Assembly (NCBI GenBank): GCA_963815115.1
Contig: CAWFFN010000009.1
Coordinates: 608,001 to 672,000, forward strand
Length of the DNA: 64,000 nt
Source of the DNA: an uncultured delta proteobacterium
GTDB taxonomy: Bacteria > Desulfobacterota > Binatia > DP-6
Direction of reading: 5' to 3'
Shown here: positions 6,038 through 13,852 of the stretch, piece by piece
Numbering within the stretch: the first letter of the stretch is position 1
How the letters are laid out: every line of letters begins with the position of its first letter
Notes under the pieces: generated by a model
Database searches by the model: none
Told to the model about the DNA's origin: nothing
The model's input: only the letters and a program-made list of their open reading frames with translations
Translations under genes and position numbers: made by a program

Positions 6038-8083
6038 TCAGAGCACGAGGTCCGTCCCCGAGGATCCGTGCTCCAGGATGCGCCGGCAGAGGCCCGCGAT
6101 GGTCGCGCCGGCTTCCGCGGGATCGAGCCCGGCCGGCCGGATGTTCGAGATGCACTTGCGATCGGCGTCGGTGCTCTGCGGGCCGGCGTGGAGCGTGACG
6201 TAGCAGCCCAGGCTGTCCGGTGACGCGAGTCCCGGTCGCTCGCCGATCAGGTGTACCACGAGACGCGCGCCCACGGCGGCCGCGATGGCGTCGGCCACGG
6301 CGACGCGCCCGTTGCGGACGGCGACCGGCGTGCCGAGCGCTCCGAGCGGTGCCAGCCGGTCGCACAGCGCGGGCCAGAGCCGCTCGAGGTGCGTTTGGGC
6401 CGCTCGCGCCGAGAGCCCGTCGGAGACCACGAGCTGGATGGCGGGGTCGCGCGGACTCGCGGCGCGGATGCGGTCGAGGTCGTCCGCGGCGAGACGTCGT
6501 CCGAGCGGCGGCTCGCGGATGTAGGCCAGCCGGTCGGGCGCTGCCGAGGCGGCCAGCAGGAAGCCGCGCGCGCGCAGGCGATCGAGGAAGGCGGGACTCC
6601 ACTCGCTCCACACCGCGTCGCGCGCGGCGGCGTGATCGGCCTGGAACGCGAGCCACGCGGCCGTCGGCGGCCGTGCGCCCACGCGGCCGACGCCGAGCCG
6701 CGCCGGCGTGGTGCGGCGGGCGCGCTCGAGGTCGAAGGTCATGCGAGCGCGCGCGGGGTCGCCGGCAAGCGGCGTCAGGCGTCCGTCCTCCATCAGCCCG
6801 CGGGCCTCGAGCCAGGCTTCGAACTCGGACGCCGGGCGCAGGTCGAGCAGCTCGCGCAGCGCGGGCGCGTCGTGGAAGGACGTCGTCTGATAGCCCAGCA
6901 TGCAGTCGTCACCCATGGGCACCGCCATGAAGTAGTTGCAGCCGGCGGCGGCGAGCAGCACGGCGAGGCTCTCGAGATCGTTCTGATCCGCCGCCATGTG
7001 GTTCGTGTAGCAGACGTCCACCCCCATCGGGACGCCGAGCAGCTTGCCCATCAGGTGATCCTCGAGGCCCGCGCGCAGGACCTGGCGGGCGTCGTAGAGG
7101 TACTCGGGACCGATGAAGCCGACGACCGTGTTCACCAGCAGCGGGCGGTACCGCCGCGCGACCCCGTAGCAGCGCGCCTCCAGCGTCACCTGGTCGAGTC
7201 CCGCATGCGTCCCGCTGGACAGCTCGGAGCCCTGGCCGGTCTCGAAGTACCAGCGATGCGGGCCGTCGAGACGGCCGCGCGCCCGGATGGCGGCGTCGGC
7301 CTCGTCGAGGAGCGCGAGATCGATGCCGAAGGCGCGATTCGCCGCGGCCGTCCCGCCGACCGACTGGAAGATCAGGTCGAGCGGCGCGCCGGCCTCGAGC
7401 GCGCGCACCTGCGTCGTCACGTGGGCGAGGACCGACACCTGGGTGGGCGTGCCCAGGCGCTCGCGCAGCGCCTGGAGCCCGCCGGCCAGCCGCTCGACGA
7501 CCTCGACCCGATCGTCGGCGGGATTCACGCCGAGGACCGCGTCGCCGCAGCCGTAGCTGAGGCCCTCGAGGGTGGACGCGAGCACGCCGTCCAGGCCGTC
7601 GCGCGGATGGTTCGGCTGGATGCGGGTGGCGAGGCGGCCGCGCTCGCCGAGCGTGGTGCGGCCGGCGACCACGACCGCGAGCTTGCGCGCGCCGAGCATG
7701 AGGTCGAGGTTCGACATCAGCTTCGCGGCGCCCGCCGCCATCTCGGGCAGCAGGCCGGGACGCAGGGCGGCCAGCGACGAAGGAGCGTCGGCGAGCAGGT
7801 GCTCGCGCAACTCTCCGACGGTCCAGCCGGCGATGCGGCCGTAGACCTCACCGTCGAGCGCGTCGAGAAACGCGCGCGTCAGCTCGTCGCGCTCCGGCGG
7901 CAGGAGCGGCTCCTCGACGAACGTGCGGAGCGGCAGGTCCGCGAGGACGGCTTTCGCCGCGACGCGCTCCCGCGCGTCGGCGGCCGCCACCCCCGCCAGC
8001 CGGTCGCCCGACTTCTCCTCGTTCGCCTTCGCCATGACCTCGGCGAGGGAACCGAAGACGTGGCCGTGCGCGGCGAGCCGCAT
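6038..8083 (-). CDS. eutB: Ethanolamine ammonia-lyase large (EutB) and small (EutC) subunits read as one ORF
   Basis: EutB motifs KANEEKSGDRLAG, RIQPNHP, YFETGQGSELS, VVGFIGPEYLYD; EutC motifs TPARLGVGR, SDGLS, LIGERPGL, DADRKCISNI (eutC part about 6038-6742). Confidence 0.9.
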   Translation of the reverse strand: MRLAAHGHVFGSLAEVMAKANEEKSGDRLAGVAAADARERVAAKAVLADLPLRTFVEEPLLPPERDELTRAFLDALDGEVYGRIAGWTVGELREHLLADAPSSLAALRPGLLPEMAAGAAKLMSNLDLMLGARKLAVVVAGRTTLGERGRLATRIQPNHPRDGLDGVLASTLEGLSYGCGDAVLGVNPADDRVEVVERLAGGLQALRERLGTPTQVSVLAHVTTQVRALEAGAPLDLIFQSVGGTAAANRAFGIDLALLDEADAAIRARGRLDGPHRWYFETGQGSELSSGTHAGLDQVTLEARCYGVARRYRPLLVNTVVGFIGPEYLYDARQVLRAGLEDHLMGKLLGVPMGVDVCYTNHMAADQNDLESLAVLLAAAGCNYFMAVPMGDDCMLGYQTTSFHDAPALRELLDLRPASEFEAWLEARGLMEDGRLTPLAGDPARARMTFDLERARRTTPARLGVGRVGARPPTAAWLAFQADHAAARDAVWSEWSPAFLDRLRARGFLLAASAAPDRLAYIREPPLGRRLAADDLDRIRAASPRDPAIQLVVSDGLSARAAQTHLERLWPALCDRLAPLGALGTPVAVRNGRVAVADAIAAAVGARLVVHLIGERPGLASPDSLGCYVTLHAGPQSTDADRKCISNIRPAGLDPAEAGATIAGLCRRILEHGSSGTDLVL

Positions 8084-8264: not shown

Positions 8265-9347
8265 TTGCCCCTGCGTATTGTCTTGCTCGAGCCAGCGGGC
8301 CTCCGCGTACGGCACTACAGCCGCCGGACCGAGCGGGCCTACGTCGGATGGATCCGCCGCTACGTCCTGTTTCACGGCAAGCGCCACCCGGCCGAGATGG
8401 GGGCCCAAGAGGTGTCGCGGTTCCTGTCGTGGCTAGCCGTCGAGGGAAGGGTTAGCGCGTCGACACAGAATCAGGCGCTGGCGGCGCTGCTGTTTCTCTA
8501 CGGGCCGGTGCTCGGCGTGGAGCTGCCGTGGCTGGACGAGCTGGCCCGGGCCGCGTGCTCGCCGCGGCTGCCGGTTGTCCTGTCGCGCGACGAGGTGCGC
8601 GCCGTCCTGCTCGCGATGCACGGGATCCCGCGCCTGATGGGCGTGCTGCTCTACGGCGCCGGACTTCGCCTGCTCGAGTGCGCGCGGCTCCGCATCAAGG
8701 ACGTGGACTTCTCGGCCAACCAGATCGTGGTCCGGAGCGGGAAGGGGGACCGCGATCGCGTCACGCTCCTTCCCGGCGTGGCCCGGTCCGCGCTGGAGCG
8801 CCACCTCGAGCAGGTGCGAGCGCAGCACGCCCGCGACCTGGCAGCAGGAGCCGGCTGGGTGGAGCTGCCGCACGCCCTGTCGCGGAAGTACCCCAACGCC
8901 GGCCGCGAGTGGCCATGGCAGTGGGTGTTCCCGGCGACGCGGACCTACGTCGAGCCTACGACCGGCCAACGCCGGCGCCATCACCGGCACGAGACCGTGG
9001 TGCAACGCGCAGCGCACCGGGCGGTGCGCGAGGCAGGGTTGACCAAGGCAGCCTCGTGCCACACGTTCCGGCACTCGTTCGCGACGCACCTGCTGGGGGA
9101 CGGCTACGACATCAGAACGGTCCAGGAGCTGCTGGGGCACCGGGACGTGCGGACGACCATGATCTACACGCACGTGCTCAACCGGGGGCCGGTGGCGGTG
9201 CGGCCGCCGGTCGAGGGTTTGGTGGAGGCGGGGGCGATGGCGCGCGTTCCCCGTCTGCCGGAGGAGGCCGCGCGTTACACCGCGGGGCCACGCAGTGTAA
9301 CGCGCGTGGGATGGGTCCCGTTCGGGGGGCGGAAGGAGCGGAAATGA
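8265..9347 (+). CDS. intI: Integron integrase (tyrosine recombinase)
   Basis: RHYSRRTE, SASTQNQAL, GLRLLE, GKG, IntI-specific patch VELPHALSRKYPNAGREWPWQWVFP, HTFRHSFATHLL, LLGH, TTMIYTHV; start uncertain. Confidence 0.95.
   Translation: MPLRIVLLEPAGLRVRHYSRRTERAYVGWIRRYVLFHGKRHPAEMGAQEVSRFLSWLAVEGRVSASTQNQALAALLFLYGPVLGVELPWLDELARAACSPRLPVVLSRDEVRAVLLAMHGIPRLMGVLLYGAGLRLLECARLRIKDVDFSANQIVVRSGKGDRDRVTLLPGVARSALERHLEQVRAQHARDLAAGAGWVELPHALSRKYPNAGREWPWQWVFPATRTYVEPTTGQRRRHHRHETVVQRAAHRAVREAGLTKAASCHTFRHSFATHLLGDGYDIRTVQELLGHRDVRTTMIYTHVLNRGPVAVRPPVEGLVEAGAMARVPRLPEEAARYTAGPRSVTRVGWVPFGGRKERK
9269..9306. repeat. 12-bp inverted repeat (CGCGCGTTACAC-N14-GTGTAACGCGCG) at the intI 3' end
   Basis: Read directly; GTTACAC recurs at 9417-9423. 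Confidence 0.75.
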
Positions 9348-9416: not shown

Positions 9417-9447
9417 GTTACACGGAACCGTCCAAGTCTCGTTAGGC
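9417..9447 (+). other. Candidate attI site
   Basis: GTTAGGC core (9441-9447) just before the first cassette ORF, preceded by GTCCAAG (L-box-like) and a GTTACAC direct-repeat-like box; no attC hairpin upstream. Confidence 0.6.
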
Positions 9448-10092: not shown

Positions 10093-10096
10093 TGCG

Positions 10097-10158
10097 GCCC
10101 AACAAGCCGATGCAGCGGACGGCACTTCGCGCCGCCGCTGATCGCCAGGACGTTATGC
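10097..10158 (+). other. attC site 1
   Basis: R'' GCCCAAC ... R' GTTATGC; internal palindrome CAGCGGACGGC/GCCGCCGCTG. Confidence 0.9.
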
Positions 10159-11577: not shown

Positions 11578-11693
11578 GCCCAACAAGCCGCTGAAGCTGA
11601 CGGCCGCGGGCTTCTGCCACGCGGATGGCTTCGGATGACACGAGTCGTGGCACCTTTCACCCGCGGCCGCAGCTTAGCGGCCATCCGTTAGAT
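11578..11693 (+). other. attC site 3 (R' box interrupted by IS110; now GTTAGAT)
   Basis: R'' GCCCAAC; stem CCGCTGAAGCTGACGGCCGCGGG/CCGCGGCCGCAGCTTAGCGG; R' GTTAG at 11687. Confidence 0.9.
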
Positions 11694-11706
11694 ACTCTCT
11701 CCTTCG

Positions 11707-12699
11707 TCAAGCAGCCGTGTGGAACTTCTCCGCTACGAATGCCGTCCGGGTCGTGAGCATCCCGTAGATCGCGTGCAGGAGCTTGCGCATGACGGCGACG
11801 TAAGCTTGCAGCGGGGTCTTGCCGCGCGCGACGAGCTTCTCGTGGAATGCGCGCACGTGGCGATTGTGTTGGACGGCGACGAGCGCCGGCATGTACAGCG
11901 CCCGCCGGATGTGGGCGTTGCCCACCTTCGAGATGCGCGCGGGCTTGTCGACGGACGTGCCCGATTGATGGGCGCGGGGATCGAGACCGGCATGGGCCAC
12001 CCACTGCCGCACCGTCATGGACTCGGGCAGCACGAGCAGCTCGGGGAGCAGCTGGACGGCGCTGTGGGTCGCGATCCCGGGCACGGACACCAGGAGGTCG
12101 AAGGCCGTCTGCAGCGCTGCGTGCTTGCCGATGAGCGTGACGGCTTGGGCCGAGAGGAGCTCCATGCGGCGCTCGAGGTGGCGGACGTTCACGTCGATAT
12201 CGCGGCACACCACGGGGGACGCGGCTGCCGTGGCCTGCAGAGCGTGCAGGCGATTGCGTTCGCGCGTCCGCTCGACGACCAGCGCGGCGATCCGGCGCGC
12301 GATGGCGCGCAGCTCCAGCACGTGCGCCGCCGGCGGCTCCCAGGCCACGAACGGCATCCGGATGACGAAGTCCCGCAGCGCGACGGCGGCCGTCAGGTCC
12401 GTCTTGGAGCGCTGCATGAGCGCCCCCGTGAACTGCTTGATGGCCCGGGGGTTGGCCACCATCACCGCCACCCCCCGTGTGCGCTGCAACGCCAGCGCGA
12501 CGTCGAGACTGTACGTCCCCGTCGACTCCAGGACCACCCGCACCGTGCGCCCGCCCTTCGTCAGCCGCCGGACCAAGCGCTGGTGGCCGGCGGCGTCATT
12601 GTCGAAGCGCGCCATCTCGAGCCGGCGTTCATCCCGTCGCACCGCGACGTCGAGCACGGCTTTGCTGACATCGATTCCCGCCTCCGTCACCTTGCGCAT
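11707..12699 (-). CDS. IS110 family transposase / bridge recombinase
   Basis: GIDVSK (D10), LESTG (E58), NPRAI, KTDLTAA (D101, A104), VPGIA, AGLDP..HQSGTS, ISKVGNAHIRRALY, AVMRKLL; RBS GGAGG. Confidence 0.95.
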   Translation of the reverse strand: MRKVTEAGIDVSKAVLDVAVRRDERRLEMARFDNDAAGHQRLVRRLTKGGRTVRVVLESTGTYSLDVALALQRTRGVAVMVANPRAIKQFTGALMQRSKTDLTAAVALRDFVIRMPFVAWEPPAAHVLELRAIARRIAALVVERTRERNRLHALQATAAASPVVCRDIDVNVRHLERRMELLSAQAVTLIGKHAALQTAFDLLVSVPGIATHSAVQLLPELLVLPESMTVRQWVAHAGLDPRAHQSGTSVDKPARISKVGNAHIRRALYMPALVAVQHNRHVRAFHEKLVARGKTPLQAYVAVMRKLLHAIYGMLTTRTAFVAEKFHTAA

Positions 12700-12754
12700 C
12701 CTCCACCTCCAGTCCTAGTCTCGCGCTCCGGGCCCCCCGACCCTGCACCTTGCG

Positions 12755-12915
12755 CCTACCGCTCTTGTGGATGCAGGCTGCCGGCCTCGGATACTCCACG
12801 GCATAGGCGAAGAGGGCGGGGGGCCGATCTAACGAACAAGCTCACGGCTTCTAGGCAGTCCGGCCTTCCCGGAGCGCCCTCCTCGCCTACACCGTGAGAG
12901 TCCGCAGCTGAAATC
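12755..12915 (-). ncRNA. Putative bridge RNA in the IS110 left non-coding end
   Basis: 15-bp stem (12804-12818/12875-12889) enclosing a loop with GACUGCCU and CGUUAG; second loop with GGAGUAUC and ACAAG; each loop has a short apical hairpin; RNA ends approximate. Confidence 0.75.
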
Positions 12916-12981
12916 CGAGATACAAGGCGGCGACGAAAGGTTCGTGGTTCAACAGTCCTTGTGTTGCAAAGGAGGTGTTCC

Positions 12982-13236
12982 GTGGACGACACCCTTCTGG
13001 TGTTCCTGGAGAAGCTGGCGAGGATTGGAGAGGATAACGACGCTCGCGAGACCGCGCGTCCCAAACGCATGCTCAACATCACGCGCGACACGGGTCGCCT
13101 CCTCTGGATCCTTATCAGGGCCATGGGCGCCACCCGGATACTGGAGATCGGTACCTCCAACGCATTCTCCACAATCTGGCTGGCCGATGCCGCACGCTCG
13201 ACCGGCGGCCGCGTCACAACGCTTGAGCTCAACCCC
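12982..13236 (+). pseudogene. Cassette 4: truncated O-methyltransferase (Methyltransf_3-like)
   Basis: RBS GGAGG, GTG; TGRLLWILIRAMGATRILEIGTSNAFSTIWLA..VTTLELNP, then runs abruptly into an attC 3' end. Confidence 0.8.
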
Positions 13237-13254
13237 TTATGCAGGCTGTTAGGC
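13236..13254 (+). other. Right-hand remnant of an attC
   Basis: CTTATGCAGGCTGTTAGGC (L'-spacer-R' GTTAGGC 13248-13254); complement GCCTAAC ends the next cassette. Confidence 0.7.
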
Positions 13255-13270
13255 GCTTGGTGGTGCTTTC

Positions 13271-13792
13271 GTGCTCGTGAACATCGCAACGATTGAGACG
13301 GAGCGGTTGAGGCTGCGGGCATTTGACGGCGGCGATCTACAGCCTTATGCCGAGATGTACGCGGACGACCTGTTCGTTCGTTATCTCGGTGGGAAGACGC
13401 TGACCAAAGAGCAAGCTTGGGAGAATATGGCCATCATACTGGGGCACTGGTCTCTGCTTGGATACGGCATCTGGGCAATTGAACGCCTAGGAACCGGTGA
13501 GCTTGTTGGAAGAGCTGGTCTATTGAATCTTCCTGGCTGGCCCGATGTGGAGGTCTGCTGGGCATTGTCCCCAAGCTTCTGGGGTAACGGATACGCTACC
13601 GAGGCGTCAAAGGCCGCTATCAATTGGGCATTCCGTGAGGCGGGCATGCGTCGCCTCATCAGCCTGATTCACCCCACAAACCAACGCTCTGAAGCGGTCG
13701 CGCTTCGTCTGGGCGAACGGTTTCGCGAACAAATCACCTTCGAAGCGAAGCCAACCAATGTATACGAAATCCTCAATGCACAACGCGCCTAA
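13271..13792 (+). CDS. Cassette 5: GNAT (RimJ/RimL-like) acetyltransferase
   Basis: IETERLRLR, GYGIWAIE, EVCWAL..FWGNGYATEA, LIHPTNQRSEAVALRLG; lower GC. Confidence 0.9.
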   Translation: MLVNIATIETERLRLRAFDGGDLQPYAEMYADDLFVRYLGGKTLTKEQAWENMAIILGHWSLLGYGIWAIERLGTGELVGRAGLLNLPGWPDVEVCWALSPSFWGNGYATEASKAAINWAFREAGMRRLISLIHPTNQRSEAVALRLGERFREQITFEAKPTNVYEILNAQRA

Positions 13793-13852
13793 CAAGCAGT
13801 TGCAGGTGACGCTACGCCTGTGGCGCAGCGCACCTGAACTGCGGCGTTAGGC
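13787..13852 (+). other. attC site (cassette 5)
   Basis: GCCTAAC...GTTAGGC; stem GCAGTTGCAGGTGACGCT/AGCGCACCTGAACTGC. Confidence 0.93.

Follow-up and report, generated by a model that had tools for sequence, protein, structure and literature searches.

What placed a mobile element inside the recombination site of an integron cassette, and how was that site found? The question is raised by a stretch of 64,000 nucleotides (nt), hereafter the window, from the genome of an uncultured delta proteobacterium of the Binatia (contig CAWFFN010000009.1, positions 608,001 to 672,000). At positions 11692-12926 of the window lies an IS110-family element of 1,235 base pairs (bp), whose gene is encoded on the minus strand and which divides an integron attC site within its R' box. 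An earlier note on this DNA had proposed that the element uses a guide RNA (bridge RNA) programmed against the attC core. Our analysis leads us to the view that the element is an insertion sequence of the IS110 group and of the IS621 type, which most likely moves by bridge-RNA-guided recombination with a guide RNA written for the attC R' box.

The element interrupts an attC site

On the plus strand the junctions read GTTAG (11687-11691) followed by ATACTCTC, and GAGATACA followed by AGGC (12925-12928). In-silico removal of 11692-12926 yields CGTTAGGC, with one GTTAGGC box, in the context ...CCATCCGTTAGGCGGCGACG or, more widely, ...CCATCCGTTAGGCGGCG... Both the junction coordinates and the restored R' box claimed in the earlier note were found to be exact. 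The break point lies inside R', two bases from the G|TT crossover, with the element antisense to the cassettes. Read on the minus strand, the junctions are GCCGC-CT-TGTATCTC (GCCGC-CT-TGTATC...) on the left and GAGAGTAT-CT-AACGG on the right, so that the end junction AGAGTAT-CT-TGTAT is present as claimed. The inserted DNA is made up of the element body (11692-12924, 1,233 nt) and one copy of the CT core; the two core copies lie on the minus strand at 12926-12925 and 11691-11690, with no further duplication at the junctions. The reading frame and both ends of the element are intact.

The interrupted site is the attC of a methyltransferase cassette and runs on the plus strand from 11578 up to the break at 11691. 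Its R'' box (GCCCAAC, 11578-11584) directly follows the methyltransferase gene, GTTAG of R' is at 11687-11691, and the last R' bases, GC, lie beyond the element at 12927-12928. The restored attC (11578-11691 plus 12927-12928) is 116 nt long and has complementary R'' and R' boxes; for its bottom strand a folding energy of -72.1 kcal/mol was calculated. The next attC on the same strand (13787-13852, 66 nt, GCCTAAC...GTTAGGC), recognized by its boxes and fold, is intact and unoccupied by the element. All attC calls in the window rest on complementary R''/R' boxes and the bottom-strand fold, not on a curated attC model. An integron integrase gene is present on the plus strand at 8265-9347 (TIGR02249, 431.6 bits against a cut-off of 265; PF00589 and PF13495), and is followed on the same strand by small cassette genes with attC-like repeats between them (at 10094, 10632 and 11575). 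With an integron-type integrase and attC sites with complementary boxes, the locus is an integron.

The non-coding ends of the element are very unequal, with 225 nt before the start codon and 15 nt after the stop codon. The left non-coding end (12700-12924, minus strand) begins with TGTATCTC, which holds the right donor and the -10 half of a predicted promoter, and contains the predicted bridge RNA. The right end (11692-11710, minus strand) includes the 15 non-coding nt, the left donor AGAGTAT (11698-11692), and TTGACG (11710-11705), the -35 half of the promoter, which overlaps the stop codon. No inverted repeat of 7 nt or longer links the first and last 60 nt of the element; the longest exact match is 6 nt, in non-matching positions.

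The recombinase is of the IS110 family

The gene of the element (11707-12699, minus strand) codes for a recombinase, or transposase, of 330 amino acids with a RuvC-like DEDD domain and a Tnp domain. Matches were obtained with Pfam profiles PF01548 (78 bits, cut-off 29) and PF02371 (66.9 bits, cut-off 21.3) and with NCBIfam NF033542, 'IS110 family RNA-guided transposase' (172.4 bits, cut-off 140). The protein is 37% identical to the IS621 recombinase over 327 amino acids (E 2e-47). Among plasmid records the best matches, from Salinibacter ruber and Acidisarcina, are about 50% identical, with IS621 next at 36-37%. In the alignment with IS621, D10 corresponds to D11, E58 to E60, D101 to D102 and S246 to S241, the pair S246-G247 matching S241-G242 of the serine nucleophile. 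Because the profile hidden Markov model scores lie above their cut-offs, the sequence places the element in the IS110 family even with an atypical catalytic tetrad.

NF033542 also matches four other places in the genome at 257.9 bits each and a fifth at 252.2 bits (G000:C8:220625, C9:342300, C9:353016, C9:428939 and C5:1395255). These are apparently copies of a different IS110-family element, and they share no DNA similarity with the element of the window apart from one 55-nt stretch found elsewhere.

The left end carries a predicted two-loop RNA

The conserved core of the predicted bridge RNA spans 12735-12871 of the minus strand and consists of a target-binding loop followed by a donor-binding loop. 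The target-binding loop (12823-12864) is closed by a stem of 12864-12862 with 12825-12823 and has an inner hairpin at 12850-12838. It carries the left target guide GACUGCCU (12860-12853) and the right target guide UUCGUUAG (12836-12829), the latter including CGUUAG at 12834-12829. The donor-binding loop (12735-12821) is closed by CCCCGCCCU (12821-12813) pairing with AGGGUCGGGG (12744-12735) and has an inner hairpin at 12787-12775; its left donor guide is GGAGUAUC (12797-12790) and its right donor guide AU..ACAAG (12772-12764, with ACAAG at 12768-12764). Guide positions were obtained by mapping alignment columns to coordinates. This mapping, together with reading of the letters, found the four loop segments where the earlier note had put them and gave the same match counts. 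CGUUAG pairs with the target CTAACG at 6/6 positions, and the whole right guide UUCGUUAG forms 7 Watson-Crick pairs and one G-U pair with CTAACGGA. The left guide GACUGCCU agrees with CGCCGCCT at 5/8 positions plus one G-U. For the donor, GGAGUAUC matches AGAGTATC at 7/8 positions and ACAAG matches CTTGT at 5/5.

Folded as a single sequence, the left end reaches -113 kcal/mol (z -3.09, 0/200 shuffles as good). For 62 left ends RNAalifold predicted a stem and an inner hairpin in the target loop, the 9-bp long-range donor stem CCCCGCCCU/AGGGUCGGGG and a further inner hairpin of AGGC with GCCU. In this consensus 97.7% of cells are paired, and 9 pairs are changed on both sides, many of the double-sided changes stemming from one 18-sequence clade and amounting to few events. 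None of 500 column shuffles was as good, and slid controls had at most 58.8% of cells paired. The two loops that the earlier note had described at the left end thus stand, with a consensus and compensatory changes. The donor loop, however, is closed by the long-range stem and not by the hairpin of the single-sequence fold; the latter pairs the donor stem with an upstream stretch and is specific to the subclade, and it was dropped in favour of the consensus.

Scoring of 12700-12926 with a covariance model, as suggested in the earlier note, was done with a family model, R1, for which only the other major clade supplied sequences (42), the subclade of the element being left out. R1 found 12735-12871 on the minus strand with 122.3 bits (E 2.9e-23), the next matches in the 64 kb being at E of at least 4. 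A Salinibacter copy scored 49 bits, and two relatives of 35-37% protein identity gave weak matches in the right place (E about 0.02-0.03).

Guides and flanks change together

Relatives of the element were collected from genome contigs (4 loci) and from the best 80 of 520 confirmed metagenome-contig matches, a choice that biases the sample to close relatives of the query; their recombinases are 52-89% identical to that of the window. Nearly all of them end in TTGAC..GAGTAT-CT and begin with CT-TGTA..., with CT at the right junction of nearly all. Their left ends share a common order: a stem, a variable stretch of some 8-9 letters that ends in CU, a small hairpin, a stretch of about 8 letters with ..CGUUAG in most cases, and the other half of the stem, then CCCCGCCC, GGAGUAUC, a small hairpin, ..ACAAG.. 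and AGGGUCGGGG.

Covariation of guides with flanking DNA was analyzed in 72 non-identical loci, only exact duplicates having been removed. On the left side of the target, guide and flank letters are the same in 265/384 cells (six non-core positions, 64 loci), compared to 195.4 +/- 6.6 after permutation. On the right side, the flank is the reverse complement of the guide in 309/390 cells (six positions, 65 loci), compared to 225.8 +/- 6.2. In both cases 0/10,000 permutations did as well, figures that overstate independence, the loci being mutually related, and that are not probabilities. The right guide reads AACG in 45 of the 65 loci, and in 40 of these the flank is AACG as well. The flank is changed likewise in 16 of the 20 loci whose right guide departs from AACG; examples of such retargeted right guides are ATCA (L028, L029), GTCC (L004, L034), ATCC (L087, L092), ACTG (L072) and CCGA (L008). 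Locus L038, whose left guide matches the left flank at 9/9 positions, appears retargeted too: its flank is non-attC, with an apparent tRNA gene on the opposite strand.

Two groups of loci show peculiarities. L087 and L092 are related copies with UCGGAUAG as right guide and CTATCCGA as right flank, and the left flank of L087 holds the reverse complement of the right flank, making a palindromic target that is non-attC by the tests used. In the subgroup L036, L039, L041, L044 and L045 left guides end in AU and not in CU; 2/5 of these loci, L039 and L045, have AT as the dinucleotide of the left junction and keep CT at the right one.

Restoration of 57 distinct two-flank sites gave 7-mers of the form GTTRRRY in 41, GTTAGGC itself in 27, with the consensus GCCGCCT|AACG; in many loci an imperfect palindrome, with GTT at its close, follows in the right flank. 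With covariation and restored sites taken together, the reading of the earlier note that the guides are programmed against the attC core holds across the family.

The share of attC sites among the flanks of relatives is uncertain, since the tests were made without a curated attC model. In a crude arm-duplex hairpin test, 22/51 AAC-flanked loci passed at a threshold which lets through 5% of 600 AAC sites taken at random from this G+C-rich genome. At a 2% control threshold 15/51 passed. Of the non-AAC loci, 1/14 passed the test. L022 and L033 are one and the same site. Two other tests were too strict or crude: exact boxes with fold energy recognized 19/73 flanks as attC, and AAC-GTT pairing in the minimum-energy fold was found for 12/58 AAC flanks.

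Donor guides match the joined ends, which form a predicted promoter

The left donor guide GGAGUAUC copies the right end of the element, AGAGTAT-C. Among relatives the donor guide and the end change together: L034 has GAGCAU with GAGCAT, and L085 GAGGAU with GAGGAT. Donor guides of L080 and L073 follow the ends partly, L086 is a one-base exception, and at L005 (GAGCACTT) the match between donor guide and end was read by eye. On the other side, ACAAG pairs with CT-TGT. Two letters further 5', AU (CAUC) accompanies TGTAT ends and GU (CGUC) accompanies TGTAC ends; this pairing apart from ACAAG recalls the discontinuous donor pairing of IS621 (PMC11208160).

When joined, the ends of the element form a predicted promoter, TTGACG - 17 nt - TATCTC, and the 17-nt spacer is present in 62/63 relatives. 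In IS621 the same promoter is split across the end junction (PMC11208158). An IS621 copy used for comparison (L094) ends in ...ACAGTAT-CT and begins with CT-TGTAT..., so its joined ends differ by one base from those of the element, just as the earlier note had stated.

The family in other samples

A quick maximum-likelihood tree of 87 recombinases placed the 84 family members in one clade (Shimodaira-Hasegawa-like approximate likelihood ratio test support of 100), on a long branch from IS621. Guides reading CTAACG are found across both major subclades, with other targets at scattered tips. With CTAACG guides in both subclades, attC targeting looks ancestral to the sampled family, close relatives being over-represented in it, with occasional retargeting.

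Up to 42% of the sampled words are present in metagenome runs from soil and caves. One soil run (X2) contains a 1,374-nt contig with a 99% identical copy of the element (14 differences in 1,212 nt), located in a different attC and having the same CGTTAG|...|AGGC junctions. Another X2 contig agrees with the last 30 nt of the attC of the window up to CGTTAG, continues with GC... and a different cassette, and is an uninterrupted site. Among contigs of the sequencing runs, the only material covered, no joint corresponding to a circle or to precise excision of this copy is listed; stretches that no contig covers carry no information. Contigs from RNA libraries contain parts of the gene (X19 records 6 and 7; X20 record 19) and short conserved left-end core pieces of relatives (X19 records 8 and 9).

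A proposed mechanism

The anatomy of the element, its restored site, the conserved RNA structure and the covariation of guides with both target and donor are the observed starting points of the scheme that follows. Its remaining parts, namely a circular form, a junction promoter that drives transcription, an RNA-protein complex and the strand-exchange chemistry, are modelled on the work on IS621. By this analogy, the element would excise as a circle, and the joining of TTGACG of the right end to TATCTC of the left end would create a promoter transcribing the left end. The resulting RNA would fold with two internal loops. The 5' arm of the target loop, GACUGCCU, would pair with the bottom strand of ..GCCT and the 3' arm, UUCGUUAG, with the top strand of CTAACG..., so that both arms would cover the attC box GTTAGGC; the donor loop would pair with the joined ends of the element, AGAGTAT-CT-TGTAT. 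In a complex of this RNA with protein, the recombinase would, as in IS621, exchange strands at the CT core. The element would thereby come to lie at the 3' end of attC in a single fixed orientation, antisense to the cassettes.

Weighing the evidence and the alternatives

Several observations weigh against the proposed bridge-RNA mechanism. R1 does not match the IS621 left end at E <= 10, and Rfam, searched at gathering and permissive thresholds, returned only chance microRNA-like hairpins and no bridge-RNA family for the left end of the element. Because both searches gave no match, homology of the RNA to that of IS621 is suggested by architecture only, and the label 'IS621-like' used in the earlier note applies to the protein (37% identity) and to the donor junction, not to RNA sequence similarity. 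The RNA-library contigs described above may be DNA carry-over, and no sign of transcription is taken from them. Only 15 to 22 of the 51 AAC flanks pass automatic attC tests; some thirty flanks look like attC sites when read by eye, which is a judgement and not a test. To these must be added the mutual relatedness of the loci and the biased sample noted above.

The fit of this copy to its own site is also moderate, as seen from the 5/8 match of the left guide. The ideal target predicted by the guides differs from the restored site by 4 mismatches in 14. In the genome 2,454 of 13,783,396 14-mers (1.8e-4) come within 4 mismatches of the predicted target, so that the match exceeds chance expectation. 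There are also better-fitting empty sites, such as the attI-like box at 9441-9447 with 3 mismatches. Four mismatches in 14, a fit shared by 2,454 14-mers, suggest insertion at a good site and not at the best one.

A further set of observations concerns the activity of this copy. The element occurs once in the 6.9-Mb genome, where better target sites are unoccupied. Its residue A104 (codon 12388-12390, minus strand) aligns with D105 of IS621, so the fourth DEDD acid is absent, and mutation of D105 abolishes recombination by IS621 (PMC11208158). The copy could be a dead relic that has the bridge-RNA architecture and lacks the fourth catalytic acid. We consider this unlikely, though it is the alternative that survives best. 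A KTDLTAA-type motif, with the alanine, is found in 24/24 members of the subclade that comprises the element and its relatives L003, L004 and L014-L034, compared to KTDxxDA in 59/59 others, IS621 included. Members of the alanine subclade occupy many different sites, among them retargeted ones, and the 99% identical copy comes from another sample, where it occupies a different attC. Among 14 genes of the subclade the ratio of nonsynonymous to synonymous substitution rates has a median of 0.146 and a maximum of 0.288 (91 pairs), and the genes are under purifying selection. Because the subclade is found at many sites and this ratio is low, we take the DED-A variant to be probably functional; the intact frame and ends of this copy also argue against a relic.

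Could the matches between loops and target be a coincidence, the element finding attC by protein or by recognition of a DNA hairpin alone? Such recognition would suit attC sites, which are structured, and the poor fit of the left guide of this copy to its own site. There is also a precedent in the IS110 element ISPpu10, which is reported in a preprint to need a target hairpin besides RNA pairing (10.64898/2026.03.19.712850). Yet different loop letters go with correspondingly different sites, several of them non-attC (L004/L034, L028/L029, L038, L087/L092, L072), and the observed match was never reached by permutation. Coincidence is, in our opinion, improbable; a contribution of the hairpin on top of RNA pairing is a possibility.

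A known group of elements, IS1111-attC (ISPa21, ISPst6, ISKpn4), belongs to the same broad family, targets attC and lies antisense to cassettes (PMC3001079, PMC11187229); its guide (seekRNA) is downstream of the transposase gene. Membership of our element in that group would explain its location, but is contradicted by the anatomy and is very improbable. Of the two non-coding regions, the one upstream of the gene is the longer (225 nt, with 15 nt downstream), a feature that separates the IS110 from the IS1111 type (PMC11208160, PMC11187229), and the terminal 60-nt stretches share no inverted repeat that reaches 7 nt. The guides are ordered as in IS621, with the left, bottom-strand guide 5' of the right, top-strand guide. 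The element is inserted in R' at the 3' end of attC, in contrast to 'near the 5'-end' as given for the group (PMC3001079). IS621 is among the closest named plasmid relatives, and no identifiable IS1111-attC element was present among the matches of the plasmid search; the group is known here by its description and not by direct sequence comparison.

A passenger role for the element, as a gene cassette that the integron integrase captured and with no insertion of its own, might be thought of from its position between two attC sites of a cassette array and from the upstream junction GTTAGAT, still of R'-box form, but this is very improbable: the break is inside R' at the duplicated CT/AG, two bases from the G|TT crossover, removal restores one attC and does not leave two, analysis of the restored site and boxes showed no attC of its own at either element end, and dozens of attC sites unrelated to one another, as well as guide-matching non-attC sites, have these same junctions.

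Comparison with known systems

Bridge-RNA-guided insertion at the R' box, our preferred explanation, brings the element close to IS621 and the IS110 group (Durrant et al. 2024, PMC11208160; Hiraizumi et al. 2024, PMC11208158). The two have the same two-domain recombinase (37% identical), the same long left and short right ends with CT cores, and the same order of target and donor loops, with a left guide located 5' that pairs with the bottom strand and a right guide located 3' that pairs with the top strand (PMC11208160). The joined ends are one base apart and would form the same kind of split promoter, predicted for the element and described for IS621 (PMC11208158). As in the IS110 group, a two-loop left-end RNA has arms matching the target and the element ends, and a CT core is found at both junctions. 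The differences are as follows. The target of the element is the attC R' box, whereas that of IS621 is repetitive extragenic palindromic (REP)-like sequences. The RNA of the element is too diverged for R1 to match the IS621 left end, its donor loop is closed by the 9-bp long-range stem and has an extra small hairpin, and the fourth DEDD residue is alanine in the subclade of the element.

The likeness to the IS1111-attC group (ISPa21, ISPst6, ISKpn4, ISPa25; Siddiquee et al. 2024, PMC11187229) is of another kind: both target attC, are antisense and orientation-specific, and encode their own guide RNA. In that group the guide RNA is downstream and the subterminal inverted repeats are long (7-17 bp; PMC11208160, PMC11187229), whereas our element has an upstream guide, only 15 nt after the stop codon and no such repeat. 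The group is described as inserting near the 5' end of attC (PMC3001079); our element is in the 3'-terminal box, R', and so follows both the cassette gene and R''. Because the guide is upstream and not downstream, the inverted repeat is absent and the insertion is in R' at the 3' end, an IS110-group lineage appears to have reached attC targeting on its own, separately from IS1111-attC, the two groups being compared by description. Group IIC-attC introns likewise home to attC in one orientation, antisense to cassettes (PMC3001079). In the 'structure-gated' IS110 element ISPpu10, natural targets adjoin a genomic hairpin (bioRxiv 10.64898/2026.03.19.712850); the hairpin requirement was shown there, whereas for our element, where the hairpin is on the right-target side, a role of the attC hairpin is only possible.

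RNA-guided targeting of attC by a DEDD enzyme is known only for IS1111-attC, and the mechanism itself is as in IS621; hence the advance is in natural history and variants. Our literature search found no paper on an IS110-group lineage aimed at attC R', though the target motifs per guide in Supplementary Data 2 of that group's work on IS621 (Durrant et al.) may already include such a target. Bridge RNA, IS110 and attC occurred together only in Durrant et al. 2024 (PMC11208160), where attC is present solely in a reference title. No paper linking a bridge recombinase to an integron was found, and neither a 2026 review nor a 2026 IS110 preprint mentions attC or integrons.

Integron surroundings of the element

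The integrase gene has the same orientation as the cassettes. About 95 nt past its stop, on the cassette strand, the GTTAGGC box at 9441-9447 is probably the attI crossover; it is empty. The first attC of the array (10097-10158) ends in GTTATGC and not in GTTAGGC. The cassette downstream of the element encodes a 111-amino-acid O-methyltransferase fragment (12961-13296, profile positions 21-82 of 204), which is overlapped by a complete GNAT acetyltransferase frame (13271-13792), so the cassette may be truncated or fused. After insertion, the attC end at 11687-11693 reads GTTAG-AT and is still of the form GTTRRRY; all relatives end in ..GTAT-CT and hence would leave the same box. For the integrase, the element may count as the start of the downstream cassette.

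A second integron integrase is encoded elsewhere in the genome (G000:C5:519851-520699; TIGR02249, 389 bits). Several CTAAC sites with attC-like hairpin scores at about 520.9-522.7 kb of the same contig suggest a second integron without a copy of the element. Apart from the integron, a frame of 681 amino acids at 6038-8083 (minus strand) matches EutB (residues 9-437) and EutC (residues 453-679), the subunits of ethanolamine ammonia-lyase being apparently fused.

Significance

For bridge-recombinase research, the family provides a natural and well-sampled set in which guide-target rules, retargeting and the natural loss of the D105 equivalent can be read from the sequence and tested directly. 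For integron biology, it would be a second, apparently independent and abundant family of RNA-guided attC-homing elements; by targeting the crossover box of environmental integrons, such elements could block cassette exchange, tag it or hitch-hike on it. One combination, of box-preserving hitch-hiking, separate attC targeting and a working DED-A site, by which the integrase could excise the element with the downstream cassette, is offered tentatively and strikes us as rather doubtful. If true, it would mean that an RNA-guided element rides the integron's own recombination system, with a DED-A catalytic site that is lethal in IS621.

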